A stretch of 62,439 nucleotides of DNA, from positions 1-62,439 of the IMG/VR virus record IMGVR_UViG_3300006737_000032. The stretch is one strand, 5' to 3'. The translations under genes and the position numbers were made by a program. The notes under the pieces are model-generated. The model was not told where the DNA came from and searched no databases. It worked only from the letters and a program-made list of their open reading frames with translations. Shown here piece after piece: positions 7,610 to 62,439 of the stretch. The stretch is from a virus (lineage: Duplodnaviria > Caudoviricetes). Positions within the stretch are counted from its first letter, which is position 1, and each line of letters opens with the position of its first letter.

Positions 7610-7832
7610 GGACCAGCTAAGCCTAATGTATATGGTGGCTACTATGCGCGTTCATCAAGCCACATCAAACATGTACGAAGAACTTCATGATCTAGATGGC
7701 GATCCACTGGAGGACCCCGACGCAGTAAAAGAGCTGTTGAATGAATTCAAGAGGACTACGATAGAAGAGATTTCTTTAGCTCTGTCAGCGGTCCAAGAGT
7801 TCATAGATGAAGATGGCCACAAGGAAGAGTAG
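7602..7832 (+). CDS. hypothetical acidic protein
   Basis: 76-aa ORF overlapping both neighbours. Confidence 0.6.
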   Translation: MTRDQLSLMYMVATMRVHQATSNMYEELHDLDGDPLEDPDAVKELLNEFKRTTIEEISLALSAVQEFIDEDGHKEE

Positions 7833-52413: not shown

Positions 52414-52424
52414 GAATTAAATTG

Positions 52425-52498
52425 TGCGCCTGTCAGGACTCGAACCTGAAACCTGCGCATTAGAAGTGCGCTGCTCTATCCTGTTGAGCTACAGGCGC
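52425..52498 (-). tRNA. tRNA-Arg(TCT)
   Basis: Canonical cloverleaf: GCGCCTG/CAGGCGC acceptor, GCGCA-CTTCTAA-TGCGC anticodon arm, GGTTCGAGTCC T arm; no encoded CCA. Confidence 0.95.
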
Positions 52499-58644: not shown

Positions 58645-58836
58645 ATGAAATCAATCAACACTCAGACTCTGAAAGAGTCTTACAAGCAGTCAGTTACACT
58701 GACTGAAGCCCGTATTCAAGCTTTGCTTGAGCTGTTTTGGACTGCTGACATAGAGAGCCTTTGGCTCTGTCTTGAGTTCTGTGAACTCAGTACCGAAGAG
58801 CAAGCTGTCATCGTAGATGAAATCGAAAACCACTAA
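58645..58836 (+). CDS. early hypothetical protein
   Basis: 63 aa, preceded by the TCAAACTTCAA leader. Confidence 0.65.
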   Translation: MKSINTQTLKESYKQSVTLTEARIQALLELFWTADIESLWLCLEFCELSTEEQAVIVDEIENH

Positions 58837-59383
58837 TTCATCGAAGATGAAGTACTCAGCAACAGCTGCAGCTAAAGCTGCAAACCAAGCCATCAACCAT
58901 CCATCCATGGTTCGTAAGAACCATGCCATCAAGCTTCTGAAAGAAGCTCTGAAGGTCATTGAGAACCTCGAAGAGGTTCCAATGGAATCTTGGGACTATC
59001 CATCAGAACCTCTTCCAGAGGTACTGAACATCAGTCATCTTATGACTGAATGGGACTTCATGTTCACCGAAGGTGAAACGATGTCTTTGACTTGTCCGAA
59101 GGACAAGATTGAACTGCCGAAGGCAGTATTCGACGAAGTCGATGAATGGCTTGAACTTCTACTTGACTTCGAAAATCTTGCAGATTTCGAAACCGACGAA
59201 GATGGCACTATCTACTTCGTAGATTGTGATGAAGCCTCCAATACTGATGTTTACATCAGTAAGATTCAAGCTTTGCTTGAGCCCTTTGGAATGAAATTCC
59301 AATGCACATTCCTCGAAGAGGAATATGAGAAAGCCAATGCTCTTCCCTTGGAAGAGAAACTCCGACGATTCGAACTCTGCTAA
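58817..59383 (+). CDS. acidic early hypothetical protein
   Basis: 188-aa ORF (start may be 58847), Glu/Asp-rich. Confidence 0.65.
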   Translation: MKSKTTNSSKMKYSATAAAKAANQAINHPSMVRKNHAIKLLKEALKVIENLEEVPMESWDYPSEPLPEVLNISHLMTEWDFMFTEGETMSLTCPKDKIELPKAVFDEVDEWLELLLDFENLADFETDEDGTIYFVDCDEASNTDVYISKIQALLEPFGMKFQCTFLEEEYEKANALPLEEKLRRFELC

Positions 59384-59406
59384 AGCAGAGAGATTGCCGA
59401 CCAACT

Positions 59407-59459
59407 GAGGGGACTCTCAGACACTCTGAGTCTTACGAAGAGTGTCAGAGAGGACCCTC
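59407..59459 (+). other. tandem-GA hairpin A
   Basis: GAGGG-GA-CTCTC-A-GACACTCT-GA-GTCTTAC-GA-AGAGTGTC-A-GAGAG-GA-CCCTC. Confidence 0.75.
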
Positions 59460-59498
59460 CCAAACCATTCAAACTTCAATTTTCAAATTTCATTTCCA

Positions 59499-60128
59499 AT
59501 GAAAAAGTCAACCAACAGAGTCGAACTGCTGAAAGCAGTTTCAGTTTCAGTCAATGAGTTCTACTTCTCACCGTCAACGGTGAGAAAGGGTCAAGCAAGA
59601 CAAGCCATCAAAGAACTCTCTGAGTTCGTTGAAGCCATCGAGTTGCCGAAGGCAACCAAGTCAAAGACATCTGACAAGCAGTCCCAAGGGACTGATGAGA
59701 TGATGGAGTTGTTCAAGCAGTTCCTCATGTCACAGGGTATGATGCCCGATGCACCGAAGGTGACCAAGACCAAGCCGAAGGCTAAGGCCAAGCCGAAGCG
59801 TCGTCGTAAGACGACCATCAAGAAAGCTACTCCACAGCAACGAGTTGCTGACAGACAAGAGAAAGCCTTTCATGGAAAGGCTGACAGCCCAGTCAAGCCT
59901 TGTTCCAAGGCTAAGACAGCTTCGGTAGAAGCTGCTCGGCAGTCAGTTCAACAGCTTGGCGAAGCCAACGGCAGTGATGAGAGAATCCGTCAACGAGCTT
60001 TAGCTCGTAAGGCTGAAGTCCTCAAAGCTTTCCAAGCGAAGCTTGATGCAGAGTTCCCCTTGGATGGAACATCCAATGAGGTTTCATTCTCTGACTTGTC
60101 ACTCCGTGAACTCCGTGACATGATGTGA
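59499..60128 (+). CDS. basic early hypothetical protein
   Basis: Start MKKSTN after the leader motif; Lys-rich centre. Confidence 0.7.
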   Translation: MKKSTNRVELLKAVSVSVNEFYFSPSTVRKGQARQAIKELSEFVEAIELPKATKSKTSDKQSQGTDEMMELFKQFLMSQGMMPDAPKVTKTKPKAKAKPKRRRKTTIKKATPQQRVADRQEKAFHGKADSPVKPCSKAKTASVEAARQSVQQLGEANGSDERIRQRALARKAEVLKAFQAKLDAEFPLDGTSNEVSFSDLSLRELRDMM

Positions 60129-60140
60129 TATCATATGACA

Positions 60141-60196
60141 GGCACACTGACGAGGCTTCAATAGCCGAAACACCCCCTTCGGGGGGTGTCTGTGTC
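60141..60196 (+). ncRNA. type I hammerhead ribozyme (HHR1)
   Basis: Stem I GGCACA/TGTGTC, core CTGACGA, stem II GGCT-TCAAT-AGCC, GAAA, stem III CACCCCC-TTCG-GGGGGTG, GTC site; cleavage after 60190. Confidence 0.92.
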
Positions 60197-60217
60197 AAAC
60201 TTCAAACTTCATCTACG

Positions 60218-60322
60218 ATGGACATTATTCTCTACGGCATGCTCATGCCAATCGCAGGTATCATACTCATCATGATATGGGTCGATGCCAACCACAACCA
60301 AAACGACAACATTGGGGGGTGA
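60218..60322 (+). CDS. 34-aa single-TM peptide
   Basis: MDIILYGMLMPIAGIILIMIWVDANH..; follows the leader motif. Confidence 0.6.
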   Translation: MDIILYGMLMPIAGIILIMIWVDANHNQNDNIGG

Positions 60323-60372
60323 GTATATACACTCTATGAGTTCTTACGAATAGAGTGATATACGAACCACCC
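60315..60372 (+). other. tandem-GA hairpin B
   Basis: GGT-GA-GTATAT-A-CACTCTAT-GA-GTTCTTAC-GA-ATAGAGTG-ATATAC-GA-ACC. Confidence 0.75.
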
Positions 60373-60395
60373 ATAAACCTTCAAACTTCAACACC

Positions 60396-60761
60396 ATGGC
60401 CTCAACACAATCATTGTATCACCTCATCCAAAGCGGTGAGGGGTTCAGCGTCAAGACAGACGGAATGACATATAACGGACTTGGCTACGCTGTCGGCGGA
60501 GCCGCTGACTGCAAGCTGTTCAAATGTGCCAATGAATCGCTGTCATTCATTGCATTTGAACAAGAGTTCAAAAAAATCCAAGCGTCATCACATGGTGACC
60601 CGTTCCAAGTGATAGGTGGATGGGTCGATGACCAAGGGTTCTTCTATCTCGAACTTTCTGACGTAGTCAGGTCACACTATGTGGCAATGGAACTTGCTAA
60701 GGCAAGAAACGAAAAAGCCATCTACGACTTCAACAACGCAAGCTCAATCGAGGTACACTGA
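60396..60761 (+). CDS. conserved phage early protein
   Basis: GFS..GYAVG..IGGWVD..YLELS..A...NEKAIYD; stop codon lies inside the HHR2 core. Confidence 0.75.
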   Translation: MASTQSLYHLIQSGEGFSVKTDGMTYNGLGYAVGGAADCKLFKCANESLSFIAFEQEFKKIQASSHGDPFQVIGGWVDDQGFFYLELSDVVRSHYVAMELAKARNEKAIYDFNNASSIEVH

Positions 60762-60803
60762 CGAGTCCTGAGTGGACGAAACACCCTTCGGGGTGTCTGT
60801 ATC
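60752..60803 (+). ncRNA. type I hammerhead ribozyme (HHR2)
   Basis: Stem I GGTACA/TGTATC, core CTGACGA, stem II GTCC-TGAGT-GGAC, GAAA, stem III CACCC-TTCG-GGGTG, GTC site; cleavage after 60797. Confidence 0.92.
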
Positions 60804-60822
60804 AAACTTCAAATCATCTACG

Positions 60823-61425
60823 ATGAATCCAAAAACATTTGACAAGATGATGTCAAAGATGCGTAGCAACGTATCACATTGGCATGACATGGCAACGGAT
60901 GATGTCATACAAGATGGTGTGGCATGGTACGACGAAGCCAAGGGCTTTGCTCTGATGCTGTCCAATGAATTCGACATATCACCACTCCGTGCAGGGGGAG
61001 TCATCTCGGCTCTCTCTCCGAGAAACAGATGGGAACGAAACAAGATTGATGCTTGGAACGTCTTTCAAGCTGTACATGATGACGTATCACACGATCGTGT
61101 GAAGGTCAGCACCTTCAATTCCAACAAGGTCAAGGCATTCAACATTGCAAAGGGACTGATTCAAGTCCACGAAGCAAGCCGAAAGACTCACCGATTCGCT
61201 TTGAATGTGGGTGCATTTGATATGAATGCTGTCACGATTGATACATGGATGGTGTACAGCTTTCAGACCAAGTCGAAGACTCGGAAGAACTTGGACAACC
61301 AGATTACACCGAAGCAATACGACCTATTGGAACGCAAGTTCCAACGCATCTCATATGACATGGGGTATGCCCCTGCACATTTGCAAGCTGTGGTATGGTT
61401 GGTCATCAGAGAACTATGGACATGA
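60823..61425 (+). CDS. phage protein, possibly HhH-GPD/DNA-glycosylase-like fold
   Basis: G.AWY..A, GVISALSPRNRWERN, KT..F..N, VTIDTWM, LQAVVW; fold assignment tentative. Confidence 0.6.
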   Translation: MNPKTFDKMMSKMRSNVSHWHDMATDDVIQDGVAWYDEAKGFALMLSNEFDISPLRAGGVISALSPRNRWERNKIDAWNVFQAVHDDVSHDRVKVSTFNSNKVKAFNIAKGLIQVHEASRKTHRFALNVGAFDMNAVTIDTWMVYSFQTKSKTRKNLDNQITPKQYDLLERKFQRISYDMGYAPAHLQAVVWLVIRELWT

Positions 61426-61574
61426 CAAAGAAAATACAATTCATCATCCCTAACGGAAGAAAGTTTGTTGTTGTTAAAACATTCAAAGACAAAAACCACT
61501 ACGACAACTACGTATCATATATGCGTAGAGAAAACCGCTTCATCTTTGATGAGGTGTGGAACGTAACTAACTGA
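61422..61574 (+). CDS. small hypothetical protein (50 aa)
   Basis: Read by hand: MTKKIQFIIPNGRKF..; ATGA overlap. Confidence 0.6.
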   Translation: MTKKIQFIIPNGRKFVVVKTFKDKNHYDNYVSYMRRENRFIFDEVWNVTN

Positions 61575-61599
61575 AACACAAACACATAATACATATTAC

Positions 61600-61752
61600 A
61601 TGAAGAATCGAGTTAACTATGCGTTCCTTGCCTTCCTCGCATGGATGGCGGCACTGATGGTCGTAGTCGTTTTGCAAGGCTGTACGACATATGATGCACA
61701 TACGCAGTACATCAAACCTGTTGGCAACACCGAATGTGCCGCTTACAACTAA
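61600..61752 (+). CDS. small lipoprotein (50 aa)
   Basis: Read by hand: MKNRVNYAFLAFLAWMAALMVVVVLQGC, lipobox LQGC. Confidence 0.6.
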   Translation: MKNRVNYAFLAFLAWMAALMVVVVLQGCTTYDAHTQYIKPVGNTECAAYN

Positions 61753-61754
61753 TG

Positions 61755-61815
61755 TAGTGTGAGTGTGTATCACCTTCTTAAACGAAGTGTAGAAGTGATA
61801 CACACGAACACACTA
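61755..61815 (+). other. tandem-GA hairpin C
   Basis: GTGT-GA-GTGTGTATCA-C-CTTCT..AGAAG-TGATACACAC-GA-ACAC. Confidence 0.7.
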
Positions 61816-61836
61816 AACCACTCAAACTTCAACCCC

Positions 61837-62151
61837 ATGAAATTCAAACTAGACTTCAAGACCACGCTACCACACGTAGCTATGACCACGGCATACGACA
61901 TTGACATAGACCGAGCCACGGGCGTAGAGATGGACACCACCGTAGAGATTGACCCCAACCACGGAACAGGTGGGTGGTACGAAACCTACGACCTTGACAC
62001 GGGAGGTGACCGCTTCTATGCAGGAGGAATCCTCGAAGTGTATTGGGATGACAACGGAGATGTACGCCTCACGGGGTACGATGGATGCTTCGAACTCCCT
62101 GAATTTATCACCGATGCTCTTGAAAAGAAGGGCGTAATCATTGACCTATGA
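61837..62151 (+). CDS. acidic early hypothetical protein
   Basis: Start MKFKLDF after the leader motif; GYDGCFELP motif. Confidence 0.7.
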   Translation: MKFKLDFKTTLPHVAMTTAYDIDIDRATGVEMDTTVEIDPNHGTGGWYETYDLDTGGDRFYAGGILEVYWDDNGDVRLTGYDGCFELPEFITDALEKKGVIIDL

Positions 62152-62342
62152 GCGATTACAAAAATCACGACACCTGCCACAAGTGCGGAGGCACTGGCAT
62201 CTTCCTCGAATCCCAAGAGGTTGGCTACGGCCAACACGGAACATCCATGTGGCTCTACGACTACGAATGCGAGGACTGCCAAGCAACGTGGGACATAAGC
62301 CTTGAACTCACCCCTGTATCACGAGAAAACCACGAATCATGA
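62148..62342 (+). CDS. small zinc-ribbon protein
   Basis: CHKCGG and CEDC. Confidence 0.65.
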   Translation: MSDYKNHDTCHKCGGTGIFLESQEVGYGQHGTSMWLYDYECEDCQATWDISLELTPVSRENHES

Positions 62343-62439
62343 CACAAGAACAATGCGAACGTGCAGTCAAGGCACTGAAAGAATCAGGCTTCTCTGCCTC
62401 CCATGTAATGGGTGAGCCTGACGACCACGGAGTGTGGTT
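62339..62439 (+). CDS. 3'-truncated hypothetical protein
   Basis: MTQEQCERAVKALKESGF.. runs off the contig end. Confidence 0.5.
   Translation, partial: MTQEQCERAVKALKESGFSASHVMGEPDDHGVW

Follow-up and report, generated by a model that had tools for sequence, protein, structure and literature searches.

In phage T7 the polycistronic early transcript is cut between cistrons by RNase III, and the upstream message keeps a stable 3' structure; this early processing is carried out by a host enzyme acting with hairpins. In synthetic insulators of the RiboJ type an engineered self-cleaving ribozyme lies 5' of the leader, strips off the upstream RNA context and defines the 5' end. Clustered hammerheads of phages were described in 2011 as arrays with several ribozymes per transcription unit, bounding variable phage genes or short blocks of them (Perreault et al. 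2011, PMC3088659). As this paper and a 2019 review report them, clustered hammerheads around single prophage genes or short blocks of them show self-cleavage both in vitro and in E. coli, and mRNA processing is the role proposed for them (PMC3088659; review PMC6765202). The cleavage tests given in the 2011 paper concern three arrays, from Clostridium scindens, Azorhizobium caulinodans and Agrobacterium tumefaciens (PMC3088659), and in the words of the review the purpose of phage hammerheads needs more work (PMC6765202). Retrozymes and viroid-like RNAs form another related group; they are non-coding, accumulate as circles and depend on reverse transcriptase or RNA replication. The hammerheads of animal retrozymes are described as type I (PMC7229834).

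The DNA analysed here (the window, 62,439 nt) is the whole of IMG/VR record IMGVR_UViG_3300006737_000032 and carries two hammerheads, HHR1 and HHR2, whose arrangement belongs to the known kind of clustered phage hammerheads described in 2011. As in those arrays, two ribozymes of the same strand, 607 nt apart, flank two small genes. Unlike the arrays as the 2011 paper presents them (PMC3088659), the ribozymes here are without exception of type I, have a helix I of constant length (6 bp), are each joined to a conserved leader with its start codon, belong to marine phages and lie below the Rfam thresholds, and a blastn search of GenBank phage records with ribozyme plus leader (HHR2 as query) gave no match. 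They differ from the RNase III sites of T7 in that the RNA is predicted to cut itself, leaving a 5'-OH and a cyclic phosphate, and from RiboJ-type insulators in being natural, repeated and conserved. The features of the region, all on one strand, are:

59499..60128, + strand: upstream early gene from the ORF list, 209 aa, no family; its stop lies 12 nt 5' of HHR1
60141..60196, + strand: HHR1, type-I hammerhead (sequence, MFE fold, covariance models); predicted cut after C60190
60191..60797, + strand: predicted 607-nt RNA from double cleavage (sequence), bicistronic, with the HHR2 fold at its end
60191..60217, + strand: 27-nt leader without Shine-Dalgarno sequence, UGUGUCAAACUUCAAACUUCAUCUACG, preceding the AUG at 60218
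60218..60322, + strand: gene for a 34-aa hydrophobic peptide of membrane type (ORF list)
60313..60373, + strand: hairpin B, a structured intercistronic module (fold -29.7 kcal/mol, z -6.3)
60396..60761, + strand: 121-aa early gene (ORF list), whose UGA stop is the UGA in the HHR2 core CUGACGA
60752..60803, + strand: HHR2, type-I hammerhead (sequence, MFE fold, covariance models); predicted cut after C60797
60798..60822, + strand: 25-nt leader of the downstream gene (sequence)
60823..61425, + strand: DUF7178 / phrog_3842 gene, 200 aa (PF23802 2.5e-32, phrog_3842 8.9e-39)

HHR1 is composed of GGCACA (60141-46), the core CUGACGA (60147-53), helix II GGCU-UCAAU-AGCC (60154-66), GAA (60167-69), helix III ACACCCCC-UUCG-GGGGGUGU (60170-89), C17 at 60190 and UGUGUC (60191-96). 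The corresponding elements of HHR2 are GGUACA (60752-57), CUGACGA (60758-64), helix II GUCC-UGAGU-GGAC (60765-77), GAA (60778-80), helix III ACACCC-UUCG-GGGUGU (60781-96), C17 at 60797 and UGUAUC (60798-803). The catalytic core (C3 U4 G5 A6 N7 G8 A9 with G12 A13 A14) is present in both, helix III is opened by the A15.1-U16.1 pair and nucleotide 17 is C (not G). In the MFE folds the core is surrounded by three helices, of which II and III are capped by loops while helix I is open. The MFE structure is the three-way hammerhead junction for HHR1 (-27.1 kcal/mol, z -3.6) as well as for HHR2 (-18.9 kcal/mol, z -1.05, i.e. no stabler than shuffled sequence). Helix I is exactly 6 bp long with no extra pairing, and inspection of loop II and the flanks by eye revealed no convincing tertiary pairing.

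The covariance models agree with this assignment. The leave-out model R2, built from relatives only with the window excluded, scores HHR2 at 68.9 bits and HHR1 at 66.9 bits (E ~1e-19 to 1e-20) with the next-best match at 10.5 bits, and model R1 gives 67.5 bits for HHR1 and 69.2 bits for HHR2. With the filters off, the covariance search finds exactly two ribozymes of this type in the whole window and none on its minus strand. The original prediction was correct about the two hammerheads, their cuts (between 60190 and 60191 and between 60797 and 60798) and the length of 607 nt. The loose core pattern taken by itself is close to chance (3 matches against 1.36 expected). At gathering thresholds Rfam reports only tRNA in the whole window. 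HHR2 reaches 21.2 bits with RF00163, under the 34-bit cut-off of that one model, for which HHR1 is not reported; the scores with RF03152 (28.2 bits, for HHR1, and 19.8 bits) are both under its cut-off of 56.3. RF03152 (RAGATH-1) is the best Rfam match of HHR1, including a small hairpin 5' of helix I, but helix II of the Rfam consensus is one pair whereas here it is a regular, covarying helix of 4-5 bp. Ribozymes of the HHR1/HHR2 type are thus overlooked at standard Rfam thresholds.

Related phages supply the comparative evidence. The seed pattern of the family fixed only the core and helix III and gave 23 matches among 22 IMG/VR stretches; in all 23 a helix I of 6 bp and a helix II of 4-5 bp are present as well, neither of which the pattern demanded. 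Among 31 distinct copies all 16 pairs are kept (100% of cells paired), with changes on both sides in 11 of the 16, and covariation scores 0.732, compared with 0.18 after shuffling and at most 0.12 with slid partners, these 31 alignment rows having been picked by a script that demanded pairing. The CUGACGA and GAA columns are invariant in the 31 distinct relatives, as is the A-U pair at the start of helix III, and position 17 is C in 29 and A in two. The structure, conservation and covariation confirm HHR1 and HHR2 as genuine type-I hammerheads, for which self-cleavage is predicted; fast cleavage at cellular Mg2+ is assumed from the conservation.

The module of hammerhead, leader and AUG occurs, always between cistrons, in 75 copies across 46 loci, which were found by window-derived probes and include close relatives, so that the counts are of non-independent events. 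An ATG-led ORF begins 19-59 nt past the cut in 70 of the 75 copies. In 68 copies the end of the upstream ORF falls within -60 to +21 nt of the first base of the ribozyme, and in 24 of these 68 it overlaps the ribozyme. Two to five ribozyme copies, bounding units of 201-1152 nt, are present at 20 of the 46 loci; the pair in the window is thus one ordinary interval of such an array. Helix I of the ribozyme itself is fully paired in 74 of the 75, and compensatory differences between neighbouring ribozymes are frequent, which together point to selection in cis. HHR1 has a copy in one relative (L066) with an identical R1 score of 67.5 bits, which reads the same by eye and whose flanks are 87% identical.

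The phage genome carrying HHR1 and HHR2 encodes terminase, portal and primase/helicase genes. The 24 sequencing runs listed for the stretch are all marine DNA, and the marine phages with hammerhead-leader modules, known from metagenomes only, are apparently lytic. By terminase the closest isolated phages (~39% identity) infect Flavobacterium, Cellulophaga, Tenacibaculum and Maribacter; such hosts fit leaders without Shine-Dalgarno sequences, and the host of this ~62-kb tailed phage is probably a member of the Bacteroidota. In GenBank phage records no blastn match was found for 59400-62439. Flavobacterium phage NC_055853.1 has one weak covariance-model match (36.2 bits) with a badly paired helix II, and the isolated relative MW202828.1 has none. 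A search of a genome collection with the ribozyme pattern matched two archaeal MAG contigs only and is uninformative on the host.

Around the ribozymes the early genes of the ORF list are closely packed on one strand, and no terminator-like site was found on the + strand in 58732-61647, which fits a single transcript. A scan for sigma-70-type promoters gave 9 sites against 5.7 +/- 2.2 expected and is uninformative, as Bacteroidota promoters differ from this type. One weak site of the sigma-70 type lies at 60096-60124, immediately 5' of HHR1. The 209-aa upstream gene has no match in Pfam or PHROG and has homologues of 30-81% identity across many related loci.

The two leaders, the 34-aa ORF, hairpin B and the 121-aa ORF that had been listed for the 607-nt interval are all present. 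Small hydrophobic peptides similar to the 34-aa one occupy the same position in L066 (28 aa) and L003 (34 aa). Hairpin B is followed by a leader (60374-60395) and has 11 copies in related loci, with compensatory changes on both sides at 11 of its 23 pairs; compared with Rfam (ribozymes, RNA families) it gave no match at E up to 10. That it is a decayed hammerhead was considered and rejected, the alignment sharing TACACT and the leader only and the covariance model being silent there. Lying in the same kind of intercistronic slot, hairpin B could be, by analogy with the T7 sites, an enzyme-dependent counterpart of the ribozyme. The 121-aa gene has 19 homologues in related loci. Its product has no Pfam match, a weak PHROG match (0.0011), no PDB sequence match below E 0.9 and no Foldseek match at E <=0.001; the AlphaFold model has pLDDT 92.2 and its best VIA-align Z is 4.1, with no clear PDB match.

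We estimate a probability of about 75% that HHR1 and HHR2 are functional type-I hammerheads acting as intercistronic processing modules in the + strand early operon. Their intercistronic placement is evident from the fixed order of upstream stop codon, hammerhead, leader of 25-27 nt without Shine-Dalgarno sequence, and AUG; cleavage in vivo, the chemistry of the ends and the consequences for stability and translation are inferred. Each ribozyme would cut itself during or after transcription. The upstream message would then end in a compact ribozyme fold with a 2',3'-cyclic phosphate, and the downstream message would carry a 5'-OH and open directly with its leader, which is short and unstructured. 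The 607-nt product would be a linear mRNA with two cistrons, encoding the 34-aa membrane peptide and the 121-aa protein, and would be independent of the adjoining messages in its stability and translation; the DUF7178 / phrog_3842 gene would be the first cistron on the 3' cleavage product of HHR2. Most likely, the long early transcript is cut in this way into separate linear messages. The outcome would be comparable to that of the T7 RNase III sites and of RiboJ-type insulators. The leader motif CAAACTTCAA precedes six consecutive + strand genes, of which only two have a ribozyme; such processing is therefore no general requirement for expressing early genes.

As a tentative refinement of the processing role, the cut may serve translation, a free unstructured 5'-OH end 25-27 nt before the AUG promoting initiation without Shine-Dalgarno pairing. 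In the leader group of the window the distance from cleavage to ATG is mostly 25-27 nt, the leaders have no Shine-Dalgarno sequence, the host is probably of the Bacteroidota, and self-cleavage 5' of ORFs is reported, for RNA viruses of fungi and plants, as enabling initiation (10.1101/2024.05.16.594327; PMC13725137). However, the four neighbouring genes that have no ribozyme carry the same leader motif at similar spacing, so that the spacing may belong to the leader itself, and where this ribozyme family occurs in other phage groups the leaders are 36-59 nt long with a hairpin and a GGAG motif.

An unlikely alternative is that the ~75-nt repeats of ribozyme and leader are patches of DNA-level homology by which early genes are shuffled between co-infecting phages, RNA cleavage being secondary. 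The early region is indeed a mosaic, with the same genes in shifting order and the modules at gene boundaries. HHR2 with its leader has ~45 matching places in related loci (79-95% identity), and marine-run contigs at a depth of 98-121 (against ~4) match 60751-60814 only and then diverge. In L007 identity of 97.5% begins precisely at 61836, one base 5' of a start codon. In L003-L005 similarity ends at 60129 and restarts at 60812/60823; the divergent part (60130-60811/60822) is bounded by the upstream gene's stop and the downstream gene's start, takes in both ribozymes and does not coincide with the interval 60191-60797 between the cuts. Breakpoints at gene boundaries are, however, expected under any phage mosaicism, and the invariant core and the compensatory changes in all three helices show that the RNA fold, beyond mere sequence identity, is under selection. 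The PeSL cassettes of T4-type phages, as described in PMC2839356 and PMC4122927, offer a precedent, being short conserved intergenic modules that border variable early genes and are linked to modular shuffling; unlike the present ribozymes they consist of promoter and stem-loop motifs. A recombination role of the ribozyme modules is only suggested by the mosaic borders, and DNA-level and RNA roles are not mutually exclusive. Among the joints listed for DNA contigs of four runs none skips 60191-60797; those listed (60452 to 60690; 60894 to 61306) stem from diverged relatives.

Closure of the 607-nt RNA into a circle serving as bicistronic mRNA, whether by a reversed hammerhead with a chimeric helix I or by a host ligase of the RtcB type, is very unlikely. 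The 5'-OH and 2',3'-cyclic phosphate ends foreseen for the RNA are expected from established hammerhead chemistry and are the right ones for such closure. The chimera that had been proposed between GGUACA and UGUGUC does form six pairs, two of them G-U, with zero mismatches, and the order of upstream GGCACA and downstream GGUACA is seen again in L051 and L052. At -0.9 kcal/mol the duplex is nevertheless weak, the native helices reaching -3.9 and -5.8. The MFE fold of the junction sequence differs from the hammerhead fold, and that of the linear product lacks the chimeric helix and leaves the 5' end free, with nucleotides 1-17 unpaired. HHR1 and HHR2 differ by a compensatory change of C-G to U-A which keeps the pairing in cis and weakens the chimera. 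The step from the layout to a circular mRNA is not borne out among relatives, where each ribozyme keeps its own helix I and the chimeric helix I contains a mismatch in 14 of the 28 distinct pairs of neighbours (at the base pair adjacent to the cut in 10 of the 14). Where the helices of neighbours differ the chimera is broken in 15 of 18 pairs, and intact chimeras occur mostly where both helices are identical (11). Both genes keep their stops, so that a circle would hold no endless ORF.

Closure of the 607-nt product by a host RtcB-type ligase, with a chimeric junction hammerhead too weak for re-opening, appears highly improbable when taken as a claim of its own. RtcB occurs widely among bacteria (it is present in 10 of 14 control genomes, that of Bacteroides thetaiotaomicron among them) and, to judge from the duplex energy, a weak chimeric ribozyme would re-cut a circle slowly, but the RtcB and RNA-ligase (PF09414) families are absent from the phage. 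A circle or splice alternative was already raised in 2011 for clustered phage hammerheads, and the 2011 paper states that such products were looked for but not detected, data not shown (PMC3088659). In metagenome contigs a 31-nt junction probe (HHR2 helix III with the HHR1 leader) had 0 matches, exact matching on assemblies being a weak test; none of the 27 matches of a leader probe lies at a contig end, which gives no hint of RNA-derived contigs beginning at the cut. The 17-mer suggested as a circle marker, GGGTGTC joined to TGTGTCAAAC, is identical to the genomic HHR1 site and non-diagnostic; an assay of the circle junction needs a probe with HHR2-specific sequence. If the circle were true it would provide the phage with an mRNA that withstands exonucleases and encodes a membrane peptide together with an early protein of unknown fold, and the same could apply to any array unit of the phage group; the comparative data offer no grounds for expecting circles.

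The layout of type-I hammerheads as direct repeats around a unit of a few hundred nt with ends suited to ligation, which is shared with retrozymes and viroid-like RNAs, is all that speaks for a mobile ribozyme-bounded cassette copied back into DNA from the cleaved unit or replicating as RNA, and this reading is close to refuted: the unit is encoded in the DNA of a dsDNA tailed phage and marine-run DNA contigs hold the interval contiguously, its interior is coding with two ORFs conserved in relatives, the minus strand is without a ribozyme, the reverse transcriptase family (PF00078, RVT_1) is absent from the phage, the junction helix is unconserved, the upstream ribozyme accompanies homologues of the 121-aa gene in 15 of 20 cases and a downstream one in 3 of 20 so that the unit as such is not conserved, and the predicted empty site with a single ribozyme is seen in no relative, L003-L005 having no ribozyme there at all. 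The first reading of the 607-nt interval is, as a whole, partly supported.

Thousands of hammerheads are present in phage DNA and their role is still unsettled. The marine phages considered here form a large coherent set with repeated copies, between early genes, of a type-I hammerhead joined to a leader and its start codon, and they supply dozens of natural ribozyme variants for testing. The candidate benefits of cleavage are thereby narrowed to three: stability of the message, insulation, or translation in a host that initiates without Shine-Dalgarno pairing.

The two hammerhead ribozymes HHR1 and HHR2 read from sequence as textbook type-I hammerheads, and the minimum-energy fold of each is the hammerhead three-way junction. 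The predicted scissile bonds lie 3' of C60190 and 3' of C60797, the same positions at which the original prediction had placed the cuts. The cargo it had assigned to the 607-nt RNA between them (60191-60797), namely two leaders, a 34-aa peptide, hairpin B and a 121-aa ORF, is all present in the interval.

Features of the ribozyme-bounded interval and its borders
60141-60196, + strand: HHR1, GGCACA / CUGACGA / GGCU-UCAAU-AGCC / GAA / ACACCCCC-UUCG-GGGGGUGU / C / UGUGUC
directly 5' of the 34-aa peptide gene, + strand: leader of 27 nt, within the interval
60218-60322, + strand: hydrophobic peptide gene, 34 aa
60313-60373, + strand: hairpin B, -29.7 kcal/mol, z -6.3
3' of hairpin B and 5' of the 121-aa ORF, + strand: second leader
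60396-60761, + strand: 121-aa ORF, its stop UGA being the UGA of the HHR2 core
60752-60803, + strand: HHR2, GGUACA / CUGACGA / GUCC-UGAGU-GGAC / GAA / ACACCC-UUCG-GGGUGU / C / UGUAUC
3' of HHR2, + strand: 25-nt leader, then DUF7178 gene

Neither ribozyme is reported by Rfam at curated thresholds; at permissive ones HHR1 scores 28.2 bits against RAGATH-1-hammerhead (cut-off 56.3) and HHR2 21.2 bits against Hammerhead_1 (cut-off 34). In the window the matches to a loose core pattern do not exceed chance (3 vs 1.36 expected). The covariance model R2, built from relatives without any window sequence, gives 68.9 bits for HHR2 and 66.9 bits for HHR1, the next match scoring 10.5 bits. With filters off, covariance searching finds exactly two such ribozymes in the window and none on its minus strand. 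A search of IMG/VR with only the core and helix III fixed returned 23 matches in 22 stretches, all 23 with a helix I of 6 bp and a helix II of 4-5 bp, neither of which the pattern demanded. Among 31 distinct aligned copies the core is invariant, 100% of cells are paired, 11 of 16 pairs show both-side changes and the covariation score is 0.732 vs 0.18 for shuffles, figures to be read with the caveat that the rows were picked by a script that demanded pairing. HHR1 and HHR2 are confirmed as real, conserved and correctly mapped ribozymes, their cleavage being predicted.

Two IMG/VR scans and model searches yielded a family of 75 ribozymes (62 distinct) in 46 loci, the window included. The distance from the cut to an ATG-led ORF is 19-59 nt in 70 of the 75 (mostly 25-27 nt in the window's leader group), and relative to the first ribozyme base the upstream ORF ends at -60 to +21 nt in 68, overlapping the ribozyme in 24 of these. 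Two to five ribozymes occur in 20 of the 46 loci and bound 28 distinct units of 201-1152 nt. The whole layout is kept in the metagenome scaffold L066 (83-96% identical) and the near-identical contig L082 (99.8%). The L066 copy of HHR1 equals that of the window in model score (67.5 bits) and by eye, its flanking coding sequence being 87% identical. The HHR2 counterpart (L066:335-485, - strand) carries a ~105-nt insertion in the helix III loop, with no Rfam family match, and keeps the hammerhead fold (52.4 bits). Marine DNA runs also contain contigs of much greater depth that match the HHR2-leader stretch alone and then diverge, so this module is common to other, more abundant phages.

Several more distant matches were recorded. 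In the isolated Flavobacterium phage elemoF (NC_055853.1, 16045-16102, - strand; locus L055) the ribozyme model has one weak match (36.2 bits), located between gp65 and gp67; its leader is similar and its helix II pairs poorly. The gene gp66, annotated as an overlapping opposite-strand ORF, may be spurious. In related locus L008 a hammerhead (7632-7681, - strand; region L008:7527-7681) lies ~40 nt 5' of a tRNA-like gene (ARAGORN: tRNA-???, irregular anticodon), which suggests that a hammerhead may free a tRNA precursor as well. Among 185,579 species genomes the ribozyme pattern matches two only, in Nitrososphaeria and Nitrosopumilales archaeal MAG contigs (L084:4703-4752 and L085:6155-6200).

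The record is a complete genome (CheckV 100%, 62,439 bp, IMG/VR) with large terminase, portal, structural, tail-fibre-like, primase/helicase and exonuclease genes; a tRNA-Arg (anticodon TCT; 52424-52498, - strand) stands between the terminase gene and the genes beyond. From ~58.6 kb to the window end, + strand genes are tightly packed, with no + strand terminator-like site in 58732-61647. This early region is a mosaic common to the phage group: a 188-aa gene, a 209-aa gene, modules with small genes, the 121-aa gene and, farther on, 104-aa and 64-aa genes, the intercistronic slots being occupied by ribozyme or hairpin B modules. L082 matches 59000-62151 at 99.8% identity and is missing precisely the 64-aa zinc-ribbon gene (62148-62342; gap at window 62152-62338, similarity resuming at 62339), by sequence a one-gene indel between near-identical phages. 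L007 (5292-5895), another related locus, is 97.5% identical to window 61836-62439, starting 1 base 5' of the 104-aa gene start codon, and its homologue of the 121-aa protein shows 41% identity only; the mosaic border here is sharp and coincides with the start of a gene.

Hairpin B recurs as a structured module, with 11 dispersed copies (window 60313-60373, L047:8709-8803, L045:10300-10392, L042, L008, and two each in L034, L041 and L017). It lies in the same kind of intercistronic slot as a hammerhead, with the same leader after it. Compensatory both-side changes occur in 11 of its 23 pairs, and the loop GAGUU(CU)UACGA and stem GUAUAUA/GAUAUAC are conserved. No Rfam family matches it; possible identities are a site for RNase III, a protein-binding site and an undescribed ribozyme. 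The 121-aa early protein (window 60396-60761; 19 homologues, with GFSV, AVGG and GxWV among the invariant residues) is modelled with confidence as an alpha/beta fold (pLDDT 92.2, pTM 0.84), and neither sequence, Foldseek nor VIA-align (best Z 4.1) finds anything convincing in the PDB.

Six early genes in a row on the + strand have the motif CAAACTTCAA ahead of them (58627, 59472, 60198, 60377/60384, 60805 and 61825; 12-27 nt 5' of the start codon), and only two of these genes carry a ribozyme. All six lack a Shine-Dalgarno sequence, and the motif is probably where translation is initiated in this host. Judged by the terminase (~39% identity), the closest isolated phages have Flavobacterium, Cellulophaga, Tenacibaculum and Maribacter as hosts, so this host too is likely a member of Bacteroidota. 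Shine-Dalgarno pairing is little used in Bacteroidota, and such leaders would fit a host of this group. In the ribozyme-less relatives L003-L005 a GC-clamped hairpin GGGGGTGCA...TGTGCCCCC occupies the HHR1 position (L003:2988-3040 and equivalents), and the genes after it have a different leader type, ACACATATCATG.

The best explanation, to which we assign a probability of about 0.75, is that an early transcript of the phage processes itself between cistrons, yielding linear messages among which the 607-nt RNA would count. The cut may mainly serve message stability, insulation or translation. That the repeats have, alongside transcript processing, a DNA-level role in gene shuffling carries a low probability. 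Still less probable is a circle of the 607-nt RNA, which a host ligase may close. The chimeric helix that its junction requires (GGUACA of HHR2 with UGUGUC of HHR1) can indeed form six pairs, two of them G-U, as originally claimed, but the duplex is weak (-0.9 kcal/mol vs -3.9 for HHR2 and -5.8 for HHR1), the junction sequence does not take a hammerhead as its minimum-energy fold, and the linear 607-mer fold leaves the 5' end unpaired. A C-G pair of HHR1 is U-A in HHR2, a compensatory change as expected from selection for pairing in cis. Of the 75 ribozymes, 74 keep their own helix I intact. Among the 28 distinct units, 14 have a mismatch in the chimeric helix, which for 10 of them falls at the pair adjoining the cut; in 11 of the 14 units where this helix is intact the two helices are simply identical. 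Homologues of the 121-aa gene have a ribozyme directly 5' in 15 of 20 cases and directly 3' in 3 of 20; the conserved unit is therefore ribozyme, leader and gene start, not leader, gene and ribozyme. A mobile RNA-borne cassette is hardly credible: L003-L005 do not swap exactly 60191-60797 but depart from the window over 60130-60811/60822, a span that runs from a stop codon to a start codon and takes in both ribozymes, and, as also counts against the circle, the phage has neither a minus-strand ribozyme nor any RtcB, RNA ligase or reverse transcriptase family found among its genes. The circular mRNA or mobile cassette of the original prediction is not supported.

Perreault et al. 2011 (PMC3088659) reported multiple prophage hammerheads around single genes or short gene blocks, showed that they cleave both in E. 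coli and in vitro, and proposed that they process long transcripts of phages; circular or spliced products were considered with none detected (data not shown). Polycistronic transcript processing is again the suggested role of phage hammerheads in a 2019 review (PMC6765202), which calls it unresolved. Among the papers listed by our searches, judged by title and abstract, none shows circular RNAs from phage hammerhead arrays or gives an account of the marine type-I module. A 2026 paper (10.1101/2024.05.16.594327) reports that in RNA viruses of fungi and plants self-cleavage allows translation to be initiated, and this parallels the leader-proximal ribozyme placement in the window's family. Clustered hammerheads bounding genes in prophages were already known from PMC3088659; the modest addition made here is a coherent ribozyme-leader-start module, a second structured module (hairpin B) and a family missed by Rfam thresholds.
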